Both the position numbers and the translations under genes were made by a program. A stretch of 64,000 nucleotides of DNA, taken from the NCBI GenBank assembly GCA_052174015.1, contig JBQMXM010000001.1:27962-91961 (forward strand), given 5' to 3'. Each line of letters begins with the position of its first letter. The first letter of the stretch is position 1. Below, piece by piece: positions 4,276-46,865 of this stretch. The DNA is from Clostridium sp. (GTDB taxonomy: Bacteria; Bacillota; Clostridia; TANB77; CAG-508). A model generated the notes under the pieces. It was not told the DNA's origin. It did no database searches and saw nothing but the letters and a program-made list of their open reading frames with translations.

Positions 4276-4865
4276 TAATTTATCCATCCTTTAGTAATTA
4301 TAGTAAATATTAATGGTAGAATTTCAATTACTGCAAAAATAGCTAATATCATAACTCTTTTTTTTCTGCTATTTTTCATACTTTCTTCATCATCTCTAAA
4401 GATTTTATCATGTGAGAAACTAATAATTAACAATATTATTGTTAGTGGTATAAATATAAATGCTAATATTTTTAATATATATAATATTATTGCAAGCCAT
4501 ATTTTACCATTGTATTTTTCTTTTAAATTTTCTAAATCTGTAATTGCATTTTGTCCAAATATAGATAATTTTGTTTTTTTGTTTTCAATATTATTTTTTA
4601 TTTTATTATTTATTTGTTCACCTTGTTTATTTATTTGATTTGTTGCATTATTATTTTGATTATTCTTTTTATTTGAATCTCCTAAATCAAATATCTTAGT
4701 TCCAAAGTTCTTATTTATATCTACATTTTCTTGATTTCCTTTTAGTCTAATATCATCTCCAAAAACATTAGGAATATCTACATTTGTTGCTTTAACTATT
4801 AAAGTAGTATTTAATATACAAAAAAATACAATTAATAATATACTAATTTTTTTAATATTTTTCAC
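4275..4865 (-). CDS. Hypothetical envelope protein: N-terminal signal peptide/TM and C-terminal double TM, Asn-rich
   Basis: 196 aa. N-terminal hydrophobic segment ISILLIVFFCILNTTLIVKA, with two predicted TM helices near the C-terminus. GTG start with a GAGAGG RBS. Translationally coupled to the downstream gene. Confidence 0.45.
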   Translation of the reverse strand: MKNIKKISILLIVFFCILNTTLIVKATNVDIPNVFGDDIRLKGNQENVDINKNFGTKIFDLGDSNKKNNQNNNATNQINKQGEQINNKIKNNIENKKTKLSIFGQNAITDLENLKEKYNGKIWLAIILYILKILAFIFIPLTIILLIISFSHDKIFRDDEESMKNSRKKRVMILAIFAVIEILPLIFTIITKGWIN

Positions 4866-29757: not shown

Positions 29758-30225
29758 TTAATTCATTTGTGCTTTAAATACAGAAATATATCCTGAAATA
29801 CTATTACCTGTCAATTTAGAAAATAATTCTTGAAATTTCCCATTAAAATATTCTCTATATTCTTCTTTTGCTTTTTCACTTATCTTATTATCTTCAAAAA
29901 ATATCTCTAATGTCCTATTAATACAATATGCTTCAAATTTTGCTTCAAAATCTGATTCAGATATTTCTTCTATTTTTTCATCATAAAATTTACCACTATC
30001 TTTAGCTTCATTTAGTGCTTTTTGAATTGATTGCATATATACTTGTTCTGAATTAGCTAAATCTGACTTTTTTAGTGTTTGTTCTGTATTTTTTAAAATA
30101 TTAATGTCTTCTTTTTCGTATGCTTTTTGAATAACTATTGCAAGTACTGTTGCAAGTACTAAAATAATGATTACTAGTATACCTATTGTTATACCATTGT
30201 TATTTTTAACTTTTATATATTTCAT
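29758..30225 (-). CDS. Prepilin-type N-terminal domain protein (pilin/pseudopilin-like), 155 aa
   Basis: N-terminus KVKNNNGITIGILVIIILVLATVLAIV is a class III signal-like segment. Last of four tandem paralogs. Confidence 0.5.
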   Translation of the reverse strand: MKYIKVKNNNGITIGILVIIILVLATVLAIVIQKAYEKEDINILKNTEQTLKKSDLANSEQVYMQSIQKALNEAKDSGKFYDEKIEEISESDFEAKFEAYCINRTLEIFFEDNKISEKAKEEYREYFNGKFQELFSKLTGNSISGYISVFKAQMN

Positions 30226-30266
30226 ATTTATTCCTTTATATATTATTTAATTTATACTATTCTCTT

Positions 30267-30680
30267 TTACATTAACTCTACATCATATTCATATATAGTT
30301 TGTTTTTTTTCATCTTTTATAATATATTTTTTATCTATTTTTTCTACTGTATATTTTAATTTTTCTTTTGCCATTTTTTCTTCAAATTCTTTTTTTACAA
30401 GTTGAAATATTTTTTCTTCTATCTCCTCATCTGCTTTTGCATTTGACATTACTATATCATACTTTCTATGATATATATCTAAAAATATATCTTCTATTTG
30501 CTTATTATTATATTTTTGTTTTTGTGATATTGTTGAATTTAATAATTCATTATTATTTGTAGATAAATTAATAACTACACCTGCAATTATTGTTAATATT
30601 ATTATTGTAAGTACTAATAATATCATTGTTATACCATTATTGCTTTTTAACTTGTATTTCAATACATTATTTGATAACAT
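30267..30680 (-). CDS. Prepilin-type N-terminal domain protein (pilin/pseudopilin-like), 137 aa
   Basis: N-terminus KLKSNNGITMILLVLTIIILTIIAGVV. Confidence 0.5.
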   Translation of the reverse strand: MLSNNVLKYKLKSNNGITMILLVLTIIILTIIAGVVINLSTNNNELLNSTISQKQKYNNKQIEDIFLDIYHRKYDIVMSNAKADEEIEEKIFQLVKKEFEEKMAKEKLKYTVEKIDKKYIIKDEKKQTIYEYDVELM

Positions 30681-30693
30681 TCATATCCCTTTC

Positions 30694-31116
30694 CTATTTC
30701 ATAATTTCTTTTATTTCAATTTCTTTTTCAATCTTTTTATCTTTACCCCTATGTAAAGTCATAATTATTGATTTTGTTTCATCAGAATATCTTAAATCTC
30801 TTAAATACTCACCATCTTTTTTTTCTGCAAAAAAACGAAACTCTCTATATACTTCAATTATTTTTTCCCCTACTTCTTTTTCAGTAATTCCAGTATCTTC
30901 TGTAAGAAGATTTAATTCTAAATATATTCTTTTAATTTCTTGTTTTACCTGTATTTCTTCTATCTCATCAATTGTTTTTTGTGCTTCTTTTACATTTTTA
31001 TTTCCATCTCTACTAATATATATATATGATACCATTGATACTATTATTGATAATGTTAAAATTGTAATTACTAAAGTAACTAAAGTTATACCTTGATTTT
31101 TCTTAAAATCTATCAT
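30694..31116 (-). CDS. Prepilin-type N-terminal domain protein (pilin/pseudopilin-like), 140 aa
   Basis: N-terminus FKKNQGITLVTLVITILTLSIIV. Overlaps the upstream paralog by 4 nt (ATGA). Confidence 0.5.
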   Translation of the reverse strand: MIDFKKNQGITLVTLVITILTLSIIVSMVSYIYISRDGNKNVKEAQKTIDEIEEIQVKQEIKRIYLELNLLTEDTGITEKEVGEKIIEVYREFRFFAEKKDGEYLRDLRYSDETKSIIMTLHRGKDKKIEKEIEIKEIMK

Positions 31117-31640
31117 ACTTTCTCCTTTAAACGAAATATTGGTTCTTTGTTTTCTCTATCATGATATGCATATACAGGCCCTAAATAATACGCTTTTCTA
31201 ATTTTTAAATCATATACTATGAAACTATAAACTGTAACATTTACTCCATACATTTTTATTTTACGTCTATTTGGTATTTCTTTTAAATTAAATTGAGAAA
31301 TATGCACTATACTGTCATCAAATTCCCTTATATCATGATGCTTAGCAGCATATTCATTATACCTTGCTTTCATTTGTCCTGAGATTGTTGTTCCATATAT
31401 ATTTAAATCATATATACTATTAGATAATATTTTTTCTTCCATTGCTGATTCTACATATTCCAATGTTGAAAGCAATTCTTGTTTTTGCTGTTCTCTAATA
31501 TAATCTAAAGAAAATGTAGTTACTGTACCTGCTATTATAGATAACAATATTATTATTGTAATTAAAGTTGTAAGTACTACACCATTTTTTTTATTTATAT
31601 TTTTCATATTATTATTAAATCCTAATCCTATTTTTTTCAT
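31113..31640 (-). CDS. Prepilin-type N-terminal domain protein (pilin/pseudopilin-like), 175 aa
   Basis: N-terminus NKKNGVVLTTLITIIILLSIIAGTV. AAAGGAAAA RBS. First gene of the four-gene cluster. Confidence 0.5.
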   Translation of the reverse strand: MKKIGLGFNNNMKNINKKNGVVLTTLITIIILLSIIAGTVTTFSLDYIREQQKQELLSTLEYVESAMEEKILSNSIYDLNIYGTTISGQMKARYNEYAAKHHDIREFDDSIVHISQFNLKEIPNRRKIKMYGVNVTVYSFIVYDLKIRKAYYLGPVYAYHDRENKEPIFRLKEKV

Positions 31641-31742
31641 ATTTTTCCTTTGTAAAGTTATATATAATATAATAATATACTTTAATAAATATTTTGTAAA
31701 TACTTTAACCTTAATTGAATATTAAAAGATATATTATAGGGG

Positions 31743-31771
31743 TTGACAAATGTTAAAAAATGTTATATTAT
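31743..31771 (+). promoter_or_regulatory. Sigma-A-type promoter for a stand-alone small RNA
   Basis: TTGACA at 31743-31748 and a TATATT/TATTAT -10 element 15-17 nt downstream with a TG extension. No protein-coding gene follows on the plus strand. Confidence 0.5.
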
Positions 31772-31775
31772 GTTT

Positions 31776-31945
31776 ATGTAAACCGTAAGAGGTTACGTTA
31801 TGCTTAATCAGAAGGAGGGTTGGTATCCTACTTCGAAGAAACTCCCCTAAAAAAGGTTTAAAACTTAGTTTTCTCCATAACAATATATTTATTCAAGCTA
31901 GGGGAGAATTTTAAGAAGGATGTTATTAACATCCTTCTTTTTCTT
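31776..31945 (+). ncRNA. Candidate ~170-nt small RNA of unassigned class (6S-like length; no obvious SRP or tmRNA motifs)
   Basis: The transcript is bounded by a consensus promoter and an intrinsic terminator (gaaggatgtt/aacatccttc followed by a T-run at 31915-31945). It is locally GC-enriched (ccgtaagaggttacg, cagaaggagggttgg, ctcccct...aggggag pairing) and lies between two minus-strand genes. Confidence 0.45.
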
Positions 31946-32040
31946 TATCTCTTTTTTTTCTATATTTTTTCTTTGTTCTTTATATTTTTACTTTTGTTTT
32001 ATTCTTTATTTTATAATTATATTTTATCTTCAATCATTTA

Positions 32041-33366
32041 TTATTCAAAATCAAATGGATTTTGTGAACCGAAGAAATTACGAATATTATTATTCTCTTG
32101 CTTTTGTTGAGTTTGATTTTCCTGTTTTTGTTGTTGTTGAATATTTTTGTTTTGTTCTTGAGTATTTGTAGTATTATTTGGAGATACTTGCATTTTCATT
32201 TTAACTGTTTGTTTCTTTCCACCTCTTATATATTCAACATCTACTAATTGATTAATTTGAACATTATTTTTTTCATTATTTATATCTGCAACTGTTGTAA
32301 CTTCTTTATTATTAAATTTAGTAATAATATCTCCTTTTTTAAGTCCACTATTTGCAGCAGATGAATTTGCAATTACTTCACTTACATATACTCCACTCTT
32401 TATATTTAAAACTTCTGCCATTTCTTTTGTTATTTCTTTTCCCATAATACCTAAAGATGGTCTTTCAACTTTTTTATTCTTAATTAGTTGTTCTGTTATT
32501 TTTTTAGTTTGATTTATTGGAATAGAAAATCCTATACCTTCAACTCCATTTCCTGCAAATTTAAGTGTATTAATACCTATAACTTCTCCATGTCTATTTA
32601 CTAAAGCTCCCCCACTATTTCCTTCATTTATTGAAGCATCTGTTTGAATTGATGTAAATGTTTTTCCATCTTGTAATTCTATTTTACGATTTATCGCACT
32701 TATAATTCCAGCAGTAACTGTACTTTTAAGTCCTAATGGGCTACCAATTGCCATTGCAAATTCCCCAATTTTTACATTGTCTGAGTTACCAAGTGTTGCT
32801 GGAACTAGATTATCTTTTTTAACTTTAATTACTGCTAAATCTGTTTGTTCATCTGTACCTACAATTTCTCCTTGTACTTTAGTATCATCATTAAATGTAA
32901 CTGTAATACTTTTAGCTTCTGTTATTGAGAAAAATGAGTTATTATTTTTTGGATTAACAACATGATTATTAGTTAAGATATATCCATCTTTAGATATTAT
33001 TATACCTGAACCTGAAGCTTTTGCTACTCCACTTTGAAATGGACTAGATACAGTATATTCAATAGAAATACCAACAATAGATGGTAATACTTTAGCAGCT
33101 ACTCCTTCTGATGTTTTTGAATATTCTTCTAAATTAACTAAGTTATTATTATTATTATTTGTTTGTGTATTATTAGGTTTATATGATAATTTTTGAGCTA
33201 TATCTTTAAAACCTAATCCTAACCACATTGATGATATTATCATCACAACTATTATTAATAATAATATGATTATCACTAAAATTGGTCTTCTTTTTTTATC
33301 AGAAGCTCCAAATTTTTTAAAATCATTTTCTTTACTGAAATTAAATTCATTATTTTTTTCTGACAT
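32041..33366 (-). CDS. htrA: HtrA/DegP-family serine protease with an N-terminal TM anchor and C-terminal PDZ domain
   Basis: Catalytic triad context (TNNHVV, D in the DLAVIKV region, GNSGGALVN), a PDZ domain, and a Gln/Asn-rich C-terminal tail. Confidence 0.9.
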   Translation of the reverse strand: MSEKNNEFNFSKENDFKKFGASDKKRRPILVIIILLLIIVVMIISSMWLGLGFKDIAQKLSYKPNNTQTNNNNNNLVNLEEYSKTSEGVAAKVLPSIVGISIEYTVSSPFQSGVAKASGSGIIISKDGYILTNNHVVNPKNNNSFFSITEAKSITVTFNDDTKVQGEIVGTDEQTDLAVIKVKKDNLVPATLGNSDNVKIGEFAMAIGSPLGLKSTVTAGIISAINRKIELQDGKTFTSIQTDASINEGNSGGALVNRHGEVIGINTLKFAGNGVEGIGFSIPINQTKKITEQLIKNKKVERPSLGIMGKEITKEMAEVLNIKSGVYVSEVIANSSAANSGLKKGDIITKFNNKEVTTVADINNEKNNVQINQLVDVEYIRGGKKQTVKMKMQVSPNNTTNTQEQNKNIQQQQKQENQTQQKQENNNIRNFFGSQNPFDFE

Positions 33367-33588: not shown

Positions 33589-35862
33589 TTACTTAGTTAA
33601 TTCTGAAATTGCATATACAATATTAGTTGCACAAACAATATTAACTTTTTCATCTTTTAGGTTTTCTTTATTATAGTCTACTTGTACATATGCCGCTAAT
33701 TTTTCTATTTCTGAAACTAATTCATTATTATTTATAATTTCTAGAACTTTGCGAACATCTTTTTGATCTATTTTACCATCTTTGTTTACATCACCTTTTT
33801 TAATTATTGTATAATAATTATTATTTACTTTTAAGATGTCTCCTGTTTTTAAAAGTTTTTTATCTGTTTTACCAATATTTTGTTTTGCTTTTTGAAGTCC
33901 TTCTGTAAATATTTCTACTTTTGTATTTTGTTTAAAGAAGTCTTCTTCTTTTACTTGCCAATCAAAGTACATAAATTTATCATCATATTTTACTAATTCT
34001 TTTAGTTTTTCATCTAATTTTAATTCGTCTTTTGGTTCTTCTGGCTTTGGTTGATTTTGAGGATTTTGTTCTTGTTCTTCTTCCTTAGGCTTTTCTGGTT
34101 GTTCTTCTTTTGGTTTCTCAGGCTCTTTATCTTTATCTTTTTCTTTGTCTTTATCCTCATTTTCTGGTTTCTTAGGTTCAGGTTGTTCAGGCTTTTCTGG
34201 TTGTTTAGGTTGTTCTGGTTGTGGTTGTGGTTTTTCTACTTCTTTTGGTAATGGTAATCCTTTTAAATATACATATTTAAAGTTTACATCTGAAGCATCT
34301 GATAATGGATATCTTGCAATATATCCTTTTTTACCTTCAAATTCAATTTCAACCCATTTATATCCGTCTGCATTTCCTACATCTTTTAATACTTTAATTT
34401 CTTGTTCATTTTTTAATGTACCTATAACTTCTCCAGATAAACTCACCTTATTTCTTACTCTAAGTGGTGCACTAAGTGTTGTAACTGCATATACAGGATA
34501 TGTTACATCTTTTTCTTCTACAAATTTGTATTTTGGTTTTTCAGGTTCGTTATTTTCTTCTTTTCCGTCTTCACCTTTTTGTACTTCTCTTATTTCAAAA
34601 TATTTATTATTTGGATTTGATCTTTTGTAGTAAGCTGTATAACCATAAGTATTTCCTAGCCTAATCTTATACCATACATGGCTTGATTCTGCTTTTTCTC
34701 TTGGAACTTCTTCTATTGCCTCAAATACTTGTCCAAAGTTTAACAATCCTAATTTTTCTGAGTTAAGATTAGGTTCTTTTCTAAATCTTACTCCTCCGTC
34801 AATAGTTATAACTGCATTATATTTATCATCATTTCCTGGTGGTGGAGTAATCTTTTTTGTCATTCTATAAAATAATGGAATTTTAAATACATATTTTTGA
34901 TTTAAATTTGAATCTACTTTTTTGTATGCTTCTCTTAAAAGTAGTCCTTCATTTATTGCTGCATGTATATTTTGCATATATTGATGGTTAACTCCACCAT
35001 TTACAACATTAAACTTCATTGTATATTTTGTATCTTGATTATTATCTAAGTAATATTTTTTAATTACTTTTGCTCCTCCTAATAATCCTTTTTTGAATGT
35101 TGTCCATCCATTATCTTTTGCATAATTTAATCCATTTCTTATTACTTCTTCTGTTCCATTTCCTGTTGCCCCTATATTTAAAGGATTATATGCTTCTATT
35201 CCATAATATGGTAACAATCCTCCCTCTTGTCTTAATTTAGTAGCAAGTTCTAAATAGTCCATATTAAGTTCTTTAGCAACTTCGTAAACTTCATTTACTC
35301 TATCTGCATTTTTTGTACCTTTTAATACATTTTCTATTAATTCTTTAGCTTTAGTTTCATCATATTTTGAAACATCAGATTTTAATGATAGGAATGAGAA
35401 AATATTTGTTTCATTCATATATACTCTTGGATCTAATAAATATCTTACTGCTTCAAGTGATGGAGCTTGCCATCTTAATTCATGTCTATCAGAATCAAAA
35501 GCTAGATTTTTTCTTTCTTCATCTATCCATTCTTTAGAATAGTTTGTAGCTCCATAACTTTCTATTAAGTTAATTGGAGATAATGTATTATTTTTTCCTC
35601 TTCCTTTTCCAAATTGTGCCTTTGCCATTTCATCAAAATCTTGACCTGTGTTTACAAATTCAAATTCCCAACTTGGATGTAATTTTTTTAATTCTTCTGC
35701 TTGCGCTGCAATACTTGGAAAGTATTGTTTTACTCTTTCTATATCTCTTGTTGTTTCTCCAACAGCTAATTTAGAATGTGCCATTGACTTTACATTTATA
35801 AATGGAAACACCATTGATAATATAGTGATTATTGCAAACATCTTTTGTATGCTTTTTTTCAT
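33589..35862 (-). CDS. Secreted cell-wall hydrolase-like protein: signal peptide, GH73-like glucosaminidase region, two SH3b-like domains, a Pro/Glu/Lys-rich linker, and a C-terminal dockerin-like (Ca-binding) repeat
   Basis: Signal peptide MFAIITILSMVFPFINVKSMA. An NGWTTFKKG...NHQYMQNIHAAINEG region similar to GH73/FlgJ-type glucosaminidases. Segments that look SH3b-like (VRFRKEPN..., LRVRNKVSLSGEVIGTL...). A PEKPKEEQPEKPKEEEQEQ linker. A C-terminal GDVNKDGKIDQKDV dockerin/EF-hand-like loop. Confidence 0.5.
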   Translation of the reverse strand: MKKSIQKMFAIITILSMVFPFINVKSMAHSKLAVGETTRDIERVKQYFPSIAAQAEELKKLHPSWEFEFVNTGQDFDEMAKAQFGKGRGKNNTLSPINLIESYGATNYSKEWIDEERKNLAFDSDRHELRWQAPSLEAVRYLLDPRVYMNETNIFSFLSLKSDVSKYDETKAKELIENVLKGTKNADRVNEVYEVAKELNMDYLELATKLRQEGGLLPYYGIEAYNPLNIGATGNGTEEVIRNGLNYAKDNGWTTFKKGLLGGAKVIKKYYLDNNQDTKYTMKFNVVNGGVNHQYMQNIHAAINEGLLLREAYKKVDSNLNQKYVFKIPLFYRMTKKITPPPGNDDKYNAVITIDGGVRFRKEPNLNSEKLGLLNFGQVFEAIEEVPREKAESSHVWYKIRLGNTYGYTAYYKRSNPNNKYFEIREVQKGEDGKEENNEPEKPKYKFVEEKDVTYPVYAVTTLSAPLRVRNKVSLSGEVIGTLKNEQEIKVLKDVGNADGYKWVEIEFEGKKGYIARYPLSDASDVNFKYVYLKGLPLPKEVEKPQPQPEQPKQPEKPEQPEPKKPENEDKDKEKDKDKEPEKPKEEQPEKPKEEEQEQNPQNQPKPEEPKDELKLDEKLKELVKYDDKFMYFDWQVKEEDFFKQNTKVEIFTEGLQKAKQNIGKTDKKLLKTGDILKVNNNYYTIIKKGDVNKDGKIDQKDVRKVLEIINNNELVSEIEKLAAYVQVDYNKENLKDEKVNIVCATNIVYAISELTK

Positions 35863-46682: not shown

Positions 46683-46711
46683 TTGACATTTTTTTCCATT
46701 TACTATATAAT
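46683..46711 (+). promoter_or_regulatory. Consensus sigma-A promoter for the tRNA gene
   Basis: TTGACA (46683-46688), 17-nt spacer, TATAAT (46706-46711), 10 nt upstream of the tRNA 5' end. Confidence 0.65.
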
Positions 46712-46721
46712 ACAAATATAT

Positions 46722-46798
46722 GGCGAAGTAGCTCAGTTGGCTAGAGCATTCGGTTCATACCCGAAGGGTCATGTGTTCGAGTCACATCTTCGCTACCA
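46722..46798 (+). tRNA. tRNA with CAT anticodon (elongator tRNA-Met or lysidine-modified tRNA-Ile2), CCA encoded
   Basis: Cloverleaf read by eye: acceptor GGCGAAG/CTTCGCT, D-arm GCTC-AGTTGGCTA-GAGC, anticodon stem TTCGG/CCGAA with loop TTCATAC, T-arm ATGTG-TTCGAGT-CACAT, 3' ACCA. Confidence 0.88.
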
Positions 46799-46822
46799 CA
46801 CAAGTTTTACTTGTGTTTTTTT
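46799..46822 (+). terminator. Intrinsic terminator immediately after the tRNA
   Basis: Stem cacaagt/acttgtg with a ttt loop, followed by ttttttt. Confidence 0.6.
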
Positions 46823-46865
46823 ATTTGCTATTTATATATTTAATATAACATATTTAACTTAAAAA

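Follow-up and report, generated by a model that had tools for sequence, protein, structure and literature searches.

We find that a short intergenic segment of the window, by which we mean the whole 64,000-nt stretch of DNA analysed here, carries a candidate gene for a structured RNA, and this gene is most likely a lineage-restricted non-coding sRNA that matches no described family. Its conserved linkage is with htrA, the protease gene that converges on it, and not with the small-protein cluster on its other side. In the fuller reading, to which we give roughly an even chance, the segment would be a genuine, independently transcribed gene for a structured non-coding RNA of about 165 nt that acts in trans by pairing an exposed CUCC with Shine-Dalgarno (SD) sequences; from the features described below, we infer the transcription of this RNA, its action in trans and its targets. 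Like trans-acting sRNAs in general, the candidate is intergenic, has its own promoter and Rho-independent terminator and holds no conserved open reading frame (ORF). The initial annotation had proposed a stand-alone, unclassified sRNA at this place, and the proposal is strengthened by the conservation of the unit, by helices with compensatory changes, by a short ORF that is not conserved and by the lack of any Rfam match.

The best promoter-like site between 31000 and 32600 lies on the plus strand, where TTGACA (31743-31748) and TATTAT (31766-31771) are separated by a 17-nt spacer and score 11/12, which bears out the consensus promoter that had been called by eye. From the spacing alone, transcription is predicted to start at about G31778. 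The promoter block (31743..31783, plus strand), comprising the -35, spacer, -10, discriminator and initial GTAAAC, is a 41-mer that is near-identical across alleles. Downstream on the same strand lies an intrinsic terminator (31913..31946), likewise expected from the initial reading, whose 12-bp stem at 31913-31939 has four G-C pairs and a 3-nt loop and is followed by TTTTCTTTATC. It was called by the terminator scan, is invariant in 4/4 alleles, and is the single terminator-like site of 31000-32600, compared with 0.2 in shuffled sequences; the same hairpin probably doubles as a weaker terminator for convergent htrA. Since the window contains 12 promoter sites scoring 11/12 or better versus 7.7 +/- 3.1 in shuffles, the promoter by itself is weak evidence. 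The weight rests on the combination of a promoter about 135 nt before a terminator on the same strand, in an intergenic position and conserved in relatives; the chance of finding a promoter no more than 250 nt upstream of a given terminator is about 0.015 at the shuffled rate. The raised GC content noted earlier is also real, at 0.30-0.32 over 31700-31950 versus 0.13-0.18 in the spacers on either side, with neighbouring genes at about 0.22-0.27. In the spacer and discriminator (31749-31783; aATGTTAaaaaATGTTAtattATGTTTatgt), ATRTTA/ATRTTT occurs three times in phase, at intervals of about 10 nt, and in the sister-species locus L002 all three read ATATTA/ATATTT, with the R position shifting in concert. 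These phased repeats could be an operator, an element of DNA curvature or a coincidence.

By its HtrA, the window belongs to a MAG that NCBI labels Clostridium sp. Through members of the HtrA 90% cluster, the same intergenic region was recovered in eight further assemblies from independent samples, and the samples of the related contigs include a human oral metagenome run. Counting that of the window, there are four alleles: the window sequence, which is also that of L001; L047-L050; L051, which equals L058; and L052. The corresponding place in a sister species (L002/L003; HtrA identity 68%) is occupied by a promoter-body-terminator unit, and 37/41 positions of its promoter 41-mer are identical. 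In all four same-species alleles and in the sister species the unit is convergent with the htrA 3' end, so that comparison of orthologous regions finds it conserved in position. The predicted RNA is about 165 nt long in the window and 151-228 nt in relatives, the L002 body measuring 228 nt.

Beyond these two species, the element was not met. An nhmmer profile of the four alleles detected no paralogue and did not reach the L002 body. HtrA relatives at 56-65% and 50% identity have spacers of 62-131 nt followed by clpB or other genes, with no element; an HtrA-based locus search of GTDB species genomes found nothing, and plasmid and phage collections contained no similar DNA. Scanning GTDB genomes with a 25-mer of the promoter gave seven matches, all unrelated strong promoters that precede RNase P RNA, a tRNA, a T-box-like leader, groES with CIRCE or ordinary genes, and the spacer motif is therefore generic and non-diagnostic. 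When metagenome contigs were scanned for the -35/-10 together with the initial transcribed sequence, the 32 matches were again all to unrelated promoters. Thus the distribution so far, as seen by exact-pattern and synteny scans, is two species, with remoter homologues possible elsewhere. Copies of the 25-mer TTGACAAATNTTAAAAAATNTTATA itself lie at L008 708-732, L011 1844-1868, L012 6020-6044 and L013 2686-2710, directly upstream of RNase P RNA in Oscillospiraceae, a tRNA in Fusobacteriales, a T-box-like leader in Eubacteriales and groES with CIRCE in Sulfurovum, and this recurrence gives the impression of strong promoters, close to consensus and with an A/T spacer, that arose convergently. On the minus strand of L002, positions 4726-4780 hold the terminator of the gene upstream of the sRNA, followed by (GCTAAAAAA)n, with two copies in L002 and three in L003; a sub-threshold SAM-II match there (24 bits, E 0.02, gathering score 44) is almost certainly spurious.

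Nearly all genes of the window lie on the minus strand. Among them, htrA (32041..33366, minus strand), the conserved neighbour, encodes an S1C serine protease with PDZ, an assignment that the Trypsin_2 and PDZ domains confirm. The C-terminus of the protein (32041-32200, minus strand) is a Q/N/E-rich low-complexity tail of variable length among strains; members of the HtrA 90% cluster are 439-448 aa long, and the tail is missing from most homologues (coverage 72-89%). On the other side of the RNA gene, divergent from it, is a four-gene small-protein cluster (29758-31640, minus strand), whose first gene (31113..31640) has a putative promoter, TTTACA-17-TATTAT, at 31700-31672. The four consecutive proteins, of 175, 140, 137 and 155 aa, each start with a basic stretch, N-G-I/V-T and a hydrophobic segment. 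The cluster had been labelled pilin-like, a label that is not confirmed and describes a resemblance: 0/4 proteins reach the Pfam threshold, and the sole Pilin_N match, to archaeal Pilin_N, is sub-threshold (30267-30680, E 0.002, 19 bits where 25 are required). The cluster may be a divergent pseudopilin-like set without the usual Glu5 or an unrelated membrane-anchored family. It stands beside the RNA in the window species only; in L002 its place on the left is taken by another gene, which is co-directional, and the convergent htrA 3' end is kept. A regulatory tie between the RNA and this cluster, as once suggested, is not supported by this change of neighbour or by complementarity to the translation initiation region (TIR) of the first cluster gene, which is only average.

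Other differences among strains and species are found around the locus. The 757-aa SH3_3 protein encoded at 33589-35862 (minus strand) ends in a sub-threshold dockerin/EF-hand-like segment, and a gene at L002 4828-5367 has a near-identical C-terminus (…NIVCATNIAYAISKLAE) but lies across the sRNA, on its opposite side, and shares its strand. The sRNA-htrA junction would be the fixed point of a local inversion or rearrangement, which this placement indicates. One strain, L047, has a DDE transposase (DDE_Tnp_1/DUF772; 1-1350) directly before htrA, a place taken by the 757-aa SH3_3 protein in the window and other strains; this IS insertion or rearrangement adjoins the locus and leaves the sRNA unit intact. 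Elsewhere in the window, the sole 12/12 promoter, TTGACA-17-TATAAT at 46683, precedes a plus-strand tRNA (46722-46795) with anticodon loop CAU, after which comes a hairpin and T-run terminator (cacaagttttacttgtgttttttt; region 46683-46830). This tRNA unit and the sRNA unit are among the very few plus-strand units of the window.

The predicted RNA folds into four separate elements, P1, P2, a P3 domain and the terminator, with no end-to-end pairing in the minimum free energy (MFE) and centroid folds of five variants, namely the four alleles and L002. These variants share one order of elements: P1 (absent from L002), a linker, P2, P3 enclosing an AU-rich, indel-rich domain, and the terminator. 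P1 (31778..31796) is a 5' hairpin in the MFE folds, GUAAaCC-GUAAGA-GGUUAC (ccgtaagaggttacg), whose stem is invariant in the four alleles and whose loop varies as GUAAGA, GUGAUU or GAAA; it is not formed in L002. The linker GUUAUGCUUAAUCA (31797..31810), which holds the ATG of a short ORF, is predicted to be unpaired in all alleles. P2 (31811..31834) is a hairpin of about 9-10 bp with loop UGGU and 5' half cagaaggagggttgg, and two of its pairs are doubly compensated among alleles, one changing from A-U to G-C and the next appearing as G.A, A-U or G-C. The L002 equivalent has one extra A-U pair, and the P2 loop motif GUUG..GUAU is common to the alleles and L002. P3 is a long-range helix between CUCCCCUA (31842..31849) and UAGGGGAG (31899..31906), the ctcccct and aggggag sides of the pairing named in the initial annotation. 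In L047, an extra C on its 5' strand is matched by an extra G opposite; compared with the window, L002 retains the inner CCUA/UAGG and has both partners replaced in each of the three pairs that follow, from CUC/GAG to AAU/AUU. A difference between L002 and L003 inside P3 falls on a predicted bulged base, and at the terminator position L002 has a different hairpin of 16 bp. RNAalifold offers an alternative in which the UAGGGGAG strand pairs with GUUUUCUCC, at an ensemble probability of no more than 0.17.

Folding and comparison of orthologous regions thus find helices kept by compensatory changes, although the statistics are thin. In the four-allele alignment, 93.6% of cells are paired, versus 44-60% after the partners have been shifted by one to three columns, and three pairs vary on both sides. 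The covariation score observed there was reached by 14/500 shuffles. Related sequences can reach such covariation scores without structure, and covariation statistics from four close alleles and one distant relative are suggestive rather than conclusive. Against dinucleotide shuffles, the window RNA folds with a z of -2.7, the other alleles reach -3.6 to -4.5 and L002 reaches -6.3; the window body without its terminator has a z of -0.54, no better than shuffles, and most of the excess stability belongs to the terminator. Two features considered along the way were dropped. All the motifs named in the initial annotation are present, but the cttcgaag palindrome (CTTCGAAG) is not conserved among alleles and reads CTTCGAAA in L047 and L052. 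An antiterminator-like swap between P2 and the terminator, which have similar strands, is weakened in L047 and would have no downstream gene to regulate.

Inside the indel-rich interior of P3, the motif UUUCUCC (31870..31876) is identical in all five variants. Its CUCC (31873-31876), the proposed seed, is unpaired in every one, with a probability of 0.82-1.0 compared to an all-base mean of about 0.4, and it forms the apical tetraloop of a small hairpin in L047 and L002. The slightly longer CUCCAU (31873-31878; unpaired probability 0.82-0.97) is complementary to AUGGAG and contains the anti-GGAG. In this window GGAG occurs in the -22..-3 region of 24/58 genes versus 5% of random 20-mers, and we therefore take it as the core Shine-Dalgarno element here. 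These features suggest the following mechanism. Transcription would begin near 31778 from a strong sigma-A-type promoter and finish at the terminator (31913-31946); the transcript would fold into P1, P2, the long-range P3 around its variable AU-rich domain, and the terminator; and a small hairpin or loop within the P3 domain would display the invariant UUUCUCC. The exposed CUCC with its flanking bases could then pair in trans with the GGAG SD regions of target mRNAs and so block translation initiation, a mode of action that other Firmicutes use in the C-rich loops of RsaE/RoxS, RNAIII and csRNAs.

When 61 TIRs from the 64-kb window were scanned for duplexes segment by segment, no target emerged as an outlier: htrA (-8.5 kcal/mol) and the adjacent cluster (-5.4 kcal/mol) were average, the mean being -7.7 +/- 2.3. 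Whole-RNA duplex folding against htrA leaders had produced meaningless long duplexes and was replaced by these segment-wise scans. The 4-nt CUCC is complementary to a large share of SDs, and specificity is unexplained. The conservation of UUUCUCC could instead be due to intramolecular pairing with GGGGAGAA, its partner in an RNAalifold alternative of low ensemble probability.

The region was described at the outset as lacking plus-strand coding potential, and this stands: no plus-strand ORF of at least 20 aa is present, and the one shorter candidate, a 16-codon ORF (MLNQKEGWYPTSKKLP) running from ATG at 31800 to TAA at 31850, was judged not to be a gene. With the SD AAGAGG 7 nt upstream of that ATG, minus-strand ORFs of 49 and 24 aa overlapping the region, and a convergent layout and shared hairpin that resemble type I toxin-antitoxin loci, one could picture a small-protein mRNA or a type I toxin-antitoxin module with a short peptide on either strand. 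We consider this very improbable. The plus-strand frame has 39 codons in L047, stops at codon 4 in L051/L058 (3 codons), runs through the terminator in L052 (>50 codons) and is absent from L002; its SD sits in the variable P1 loop, its substitutions are non-synonymous yet preserve pairing, and the peptide is not hydrophobic. The 49-aa minus-strand ORF is frameshifted by a 16-nt deletion in L052 and by insertions in L047. Type I modules combine a conserved hydrophobic peptide ORF with an antisense RNA, and here indels and stops disrupt the ORFs on both strands. Because the ORFs are not conserved, coding readings were rejected on both strands, and the element, judged from its alleles, is not protein-coding.

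Known RNA families offer no better home for the candidate. At gathering thresholds, Rfam identifies only the tRNA at 46722-46795 in the whole window, and focused scans of the window locus (500 nt), L002 and L047 at E<=10 return sub-threshold noise, mostly from the terminator hairpin, with no match to 6S, SRP, tmRNA, RNase P, RsaE or csRNA in any of the scans. This absence of a family match in the covariance-model scan fits an unclassified sRNA. That the candidate is a housekeeping RNA (6S, SRP, tmRNA or RNase P) in divergent form is extremely improbable. Its length of about 165 nt and strong promoter are compatible with 6S RNA (RF00013), as had been suggested earlier on account of length, but no model matches at gathering thresholds or, in three variants, at E<=10; the 5' and 3' ends form no closing stem and the central bubble is absent; the candidate has its own terminator rather than relying on processing; and it diverges far faster than such RNAs do.

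More serious competitors accept the transcript but assign it another role. A cis-antisense element or insulator would lie head-on to htrA and stop or degrade its read-through ahead of the co-directional genes further on, or share a bidirectional terminator with it, and would have no trans targets. The convergent htrA 3' end is indeed the only conserved genomic partner, and the shared hairpin has a poor U-tract on the htrA strand (UUAAAAUUCUCC), where the scan called no minus-strand terminator; read-through antisense to the whole RNA is therefore plausible. However, such a function needs a promoter and a terminator only, leaving the compensation in P2 and P3 and the invariant exposed UUUCUCC unexplained, and L002, where the next gene past the RNA is encoded on the opposite strand, has no downstream operon needing protection. 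We regard the insulator as unlikely. An RNA that binds a protein or sponges another RNA rather than pairing with SDs, for example by titration or as a component of a lineage-specific RNP, is also improbable, although it would accommodate the strong promoter (the same 25-mer precedes RNase P RNA and tRNA in other taxa), the conserved multi-helix architecture, with its P2 loop shared with L002, and the failure of the 61 window TIRs to yield an mRNA target. Against it, the body diverges very fast between the sister species, which most protein-bound housekeeping RNAs do not, the RNA lacks repeated protein-binding motifs (multiple GGA loops, for instance), and no known RNP RNA family is matched. 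Quite doubtful, too, is the more ambitious idea that the candidate founds a new structured-RNA family coupled to HtrA, for instance as an envelope- or secretion-stress riboregulator, in which the ATRTTA-repeat promoter block would be the operator of a stress regulator and P2/P3 would bind a protein partner.

The locus might also have no function, being a fortuitous promoter next to the htrA terminator that gives a short pervasive transcript, conserved through close kinship only. Promoter-like sites are common in AT-rich DNA (12 versus 7.7 expected, as above), the window body is not unusually stable, and the distribution is very narrow, the element being absent after htrA in remoter relatives and the promoter scans of GTDB and metagenome sequences giving no further copy. 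Nevertheless, the promoter block is kept at 37/41 positions where neighbouring sequence is unalignable, GC stands 12-15 points above the adjacent spacers, two helices show compensatory changes and paired indels, and a 7-mer is invariant inside an indel-rich region. These observations make a functionless transcript decidedly unlikely, and we continue with the trans-acting sRNA as the preferred reading.

If transcribed, the RNA would give an uncultured, human-associated and extremely AT-rich lineage of Clostridia-like bacteria a first riboregulator candidate; to our knowledge, no sRNA has been described for this lineage. Its fixed site at the htrA 3' end offers a hypothesis that ties RNA regulation to envelope protein quality control. 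Moreover, keeping promoter and fold while losing primary sequence between sister species, the locus would be an example of fast sRNA gene evolution, and because sequence is lost so quickly, Rfam-type searches miss such genes. As a class of element it is ordinary and leaves current views of bacterial RNA regulation unchanged.

Among known sRNAs, the candidate resembles RsaE/RoxS (RF01820) and the hairpins of S. aureus RNAIII in being a stand-alone gene with its own promoter and intrinsic terminator and in presenting a short C-rich motif unpaired or in a loop; in these sRNAs such motifs pair with Shine-Dalgarno regions rich in G. RsaE recognises its target mRNAs through G-rich motifs (PMC6158497), and the C-rich regions of RoxS have been described (PMC8216469, PMC5419742). 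In contrast to RsaE/RoxS, the candidate has neither sequence nor covariance-model similarity to that family, is larger and contains a long-range helix, and occurs in two species rather than Firmicutes-wide. RF01820 is marked by at least two UCCC/CCCC motifs in loops, whereas the candidate exposes one invariant CUCC, its CUCCCC being sequestered in P3.

The csRNAs of streptococci are intergenic promoter and terminator units of 51-202 nt with unpaired stretches complementary to SDs and start codons, and they are defined by a CiaR box, NTTAAG-N5-TTTAAG, located 10 nt upstream of the -10 (PMC3091779). Here, the corresponding segment 31735-31771 reads tataggggTTGACAaatgttaaaaaatgttaTATTAT, with no TTAAG repeat and a canonical TTGACA -35; the candidate also differs in having no Rfam match and in its host, which is not a Streptococcus. 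The likeness to csRNAs is therefore one of mode of action only, a promoter-terminator unit in which an unpaired SD-complementary stretch is followed by the terminator. A further parallel is the connection to htrA, since csRNAs and htrA belong to one regulon in streptococci (PMC10197876, PMC4507080): in those bacteria the connection is a shared regulon, and here it is physical adjacency.
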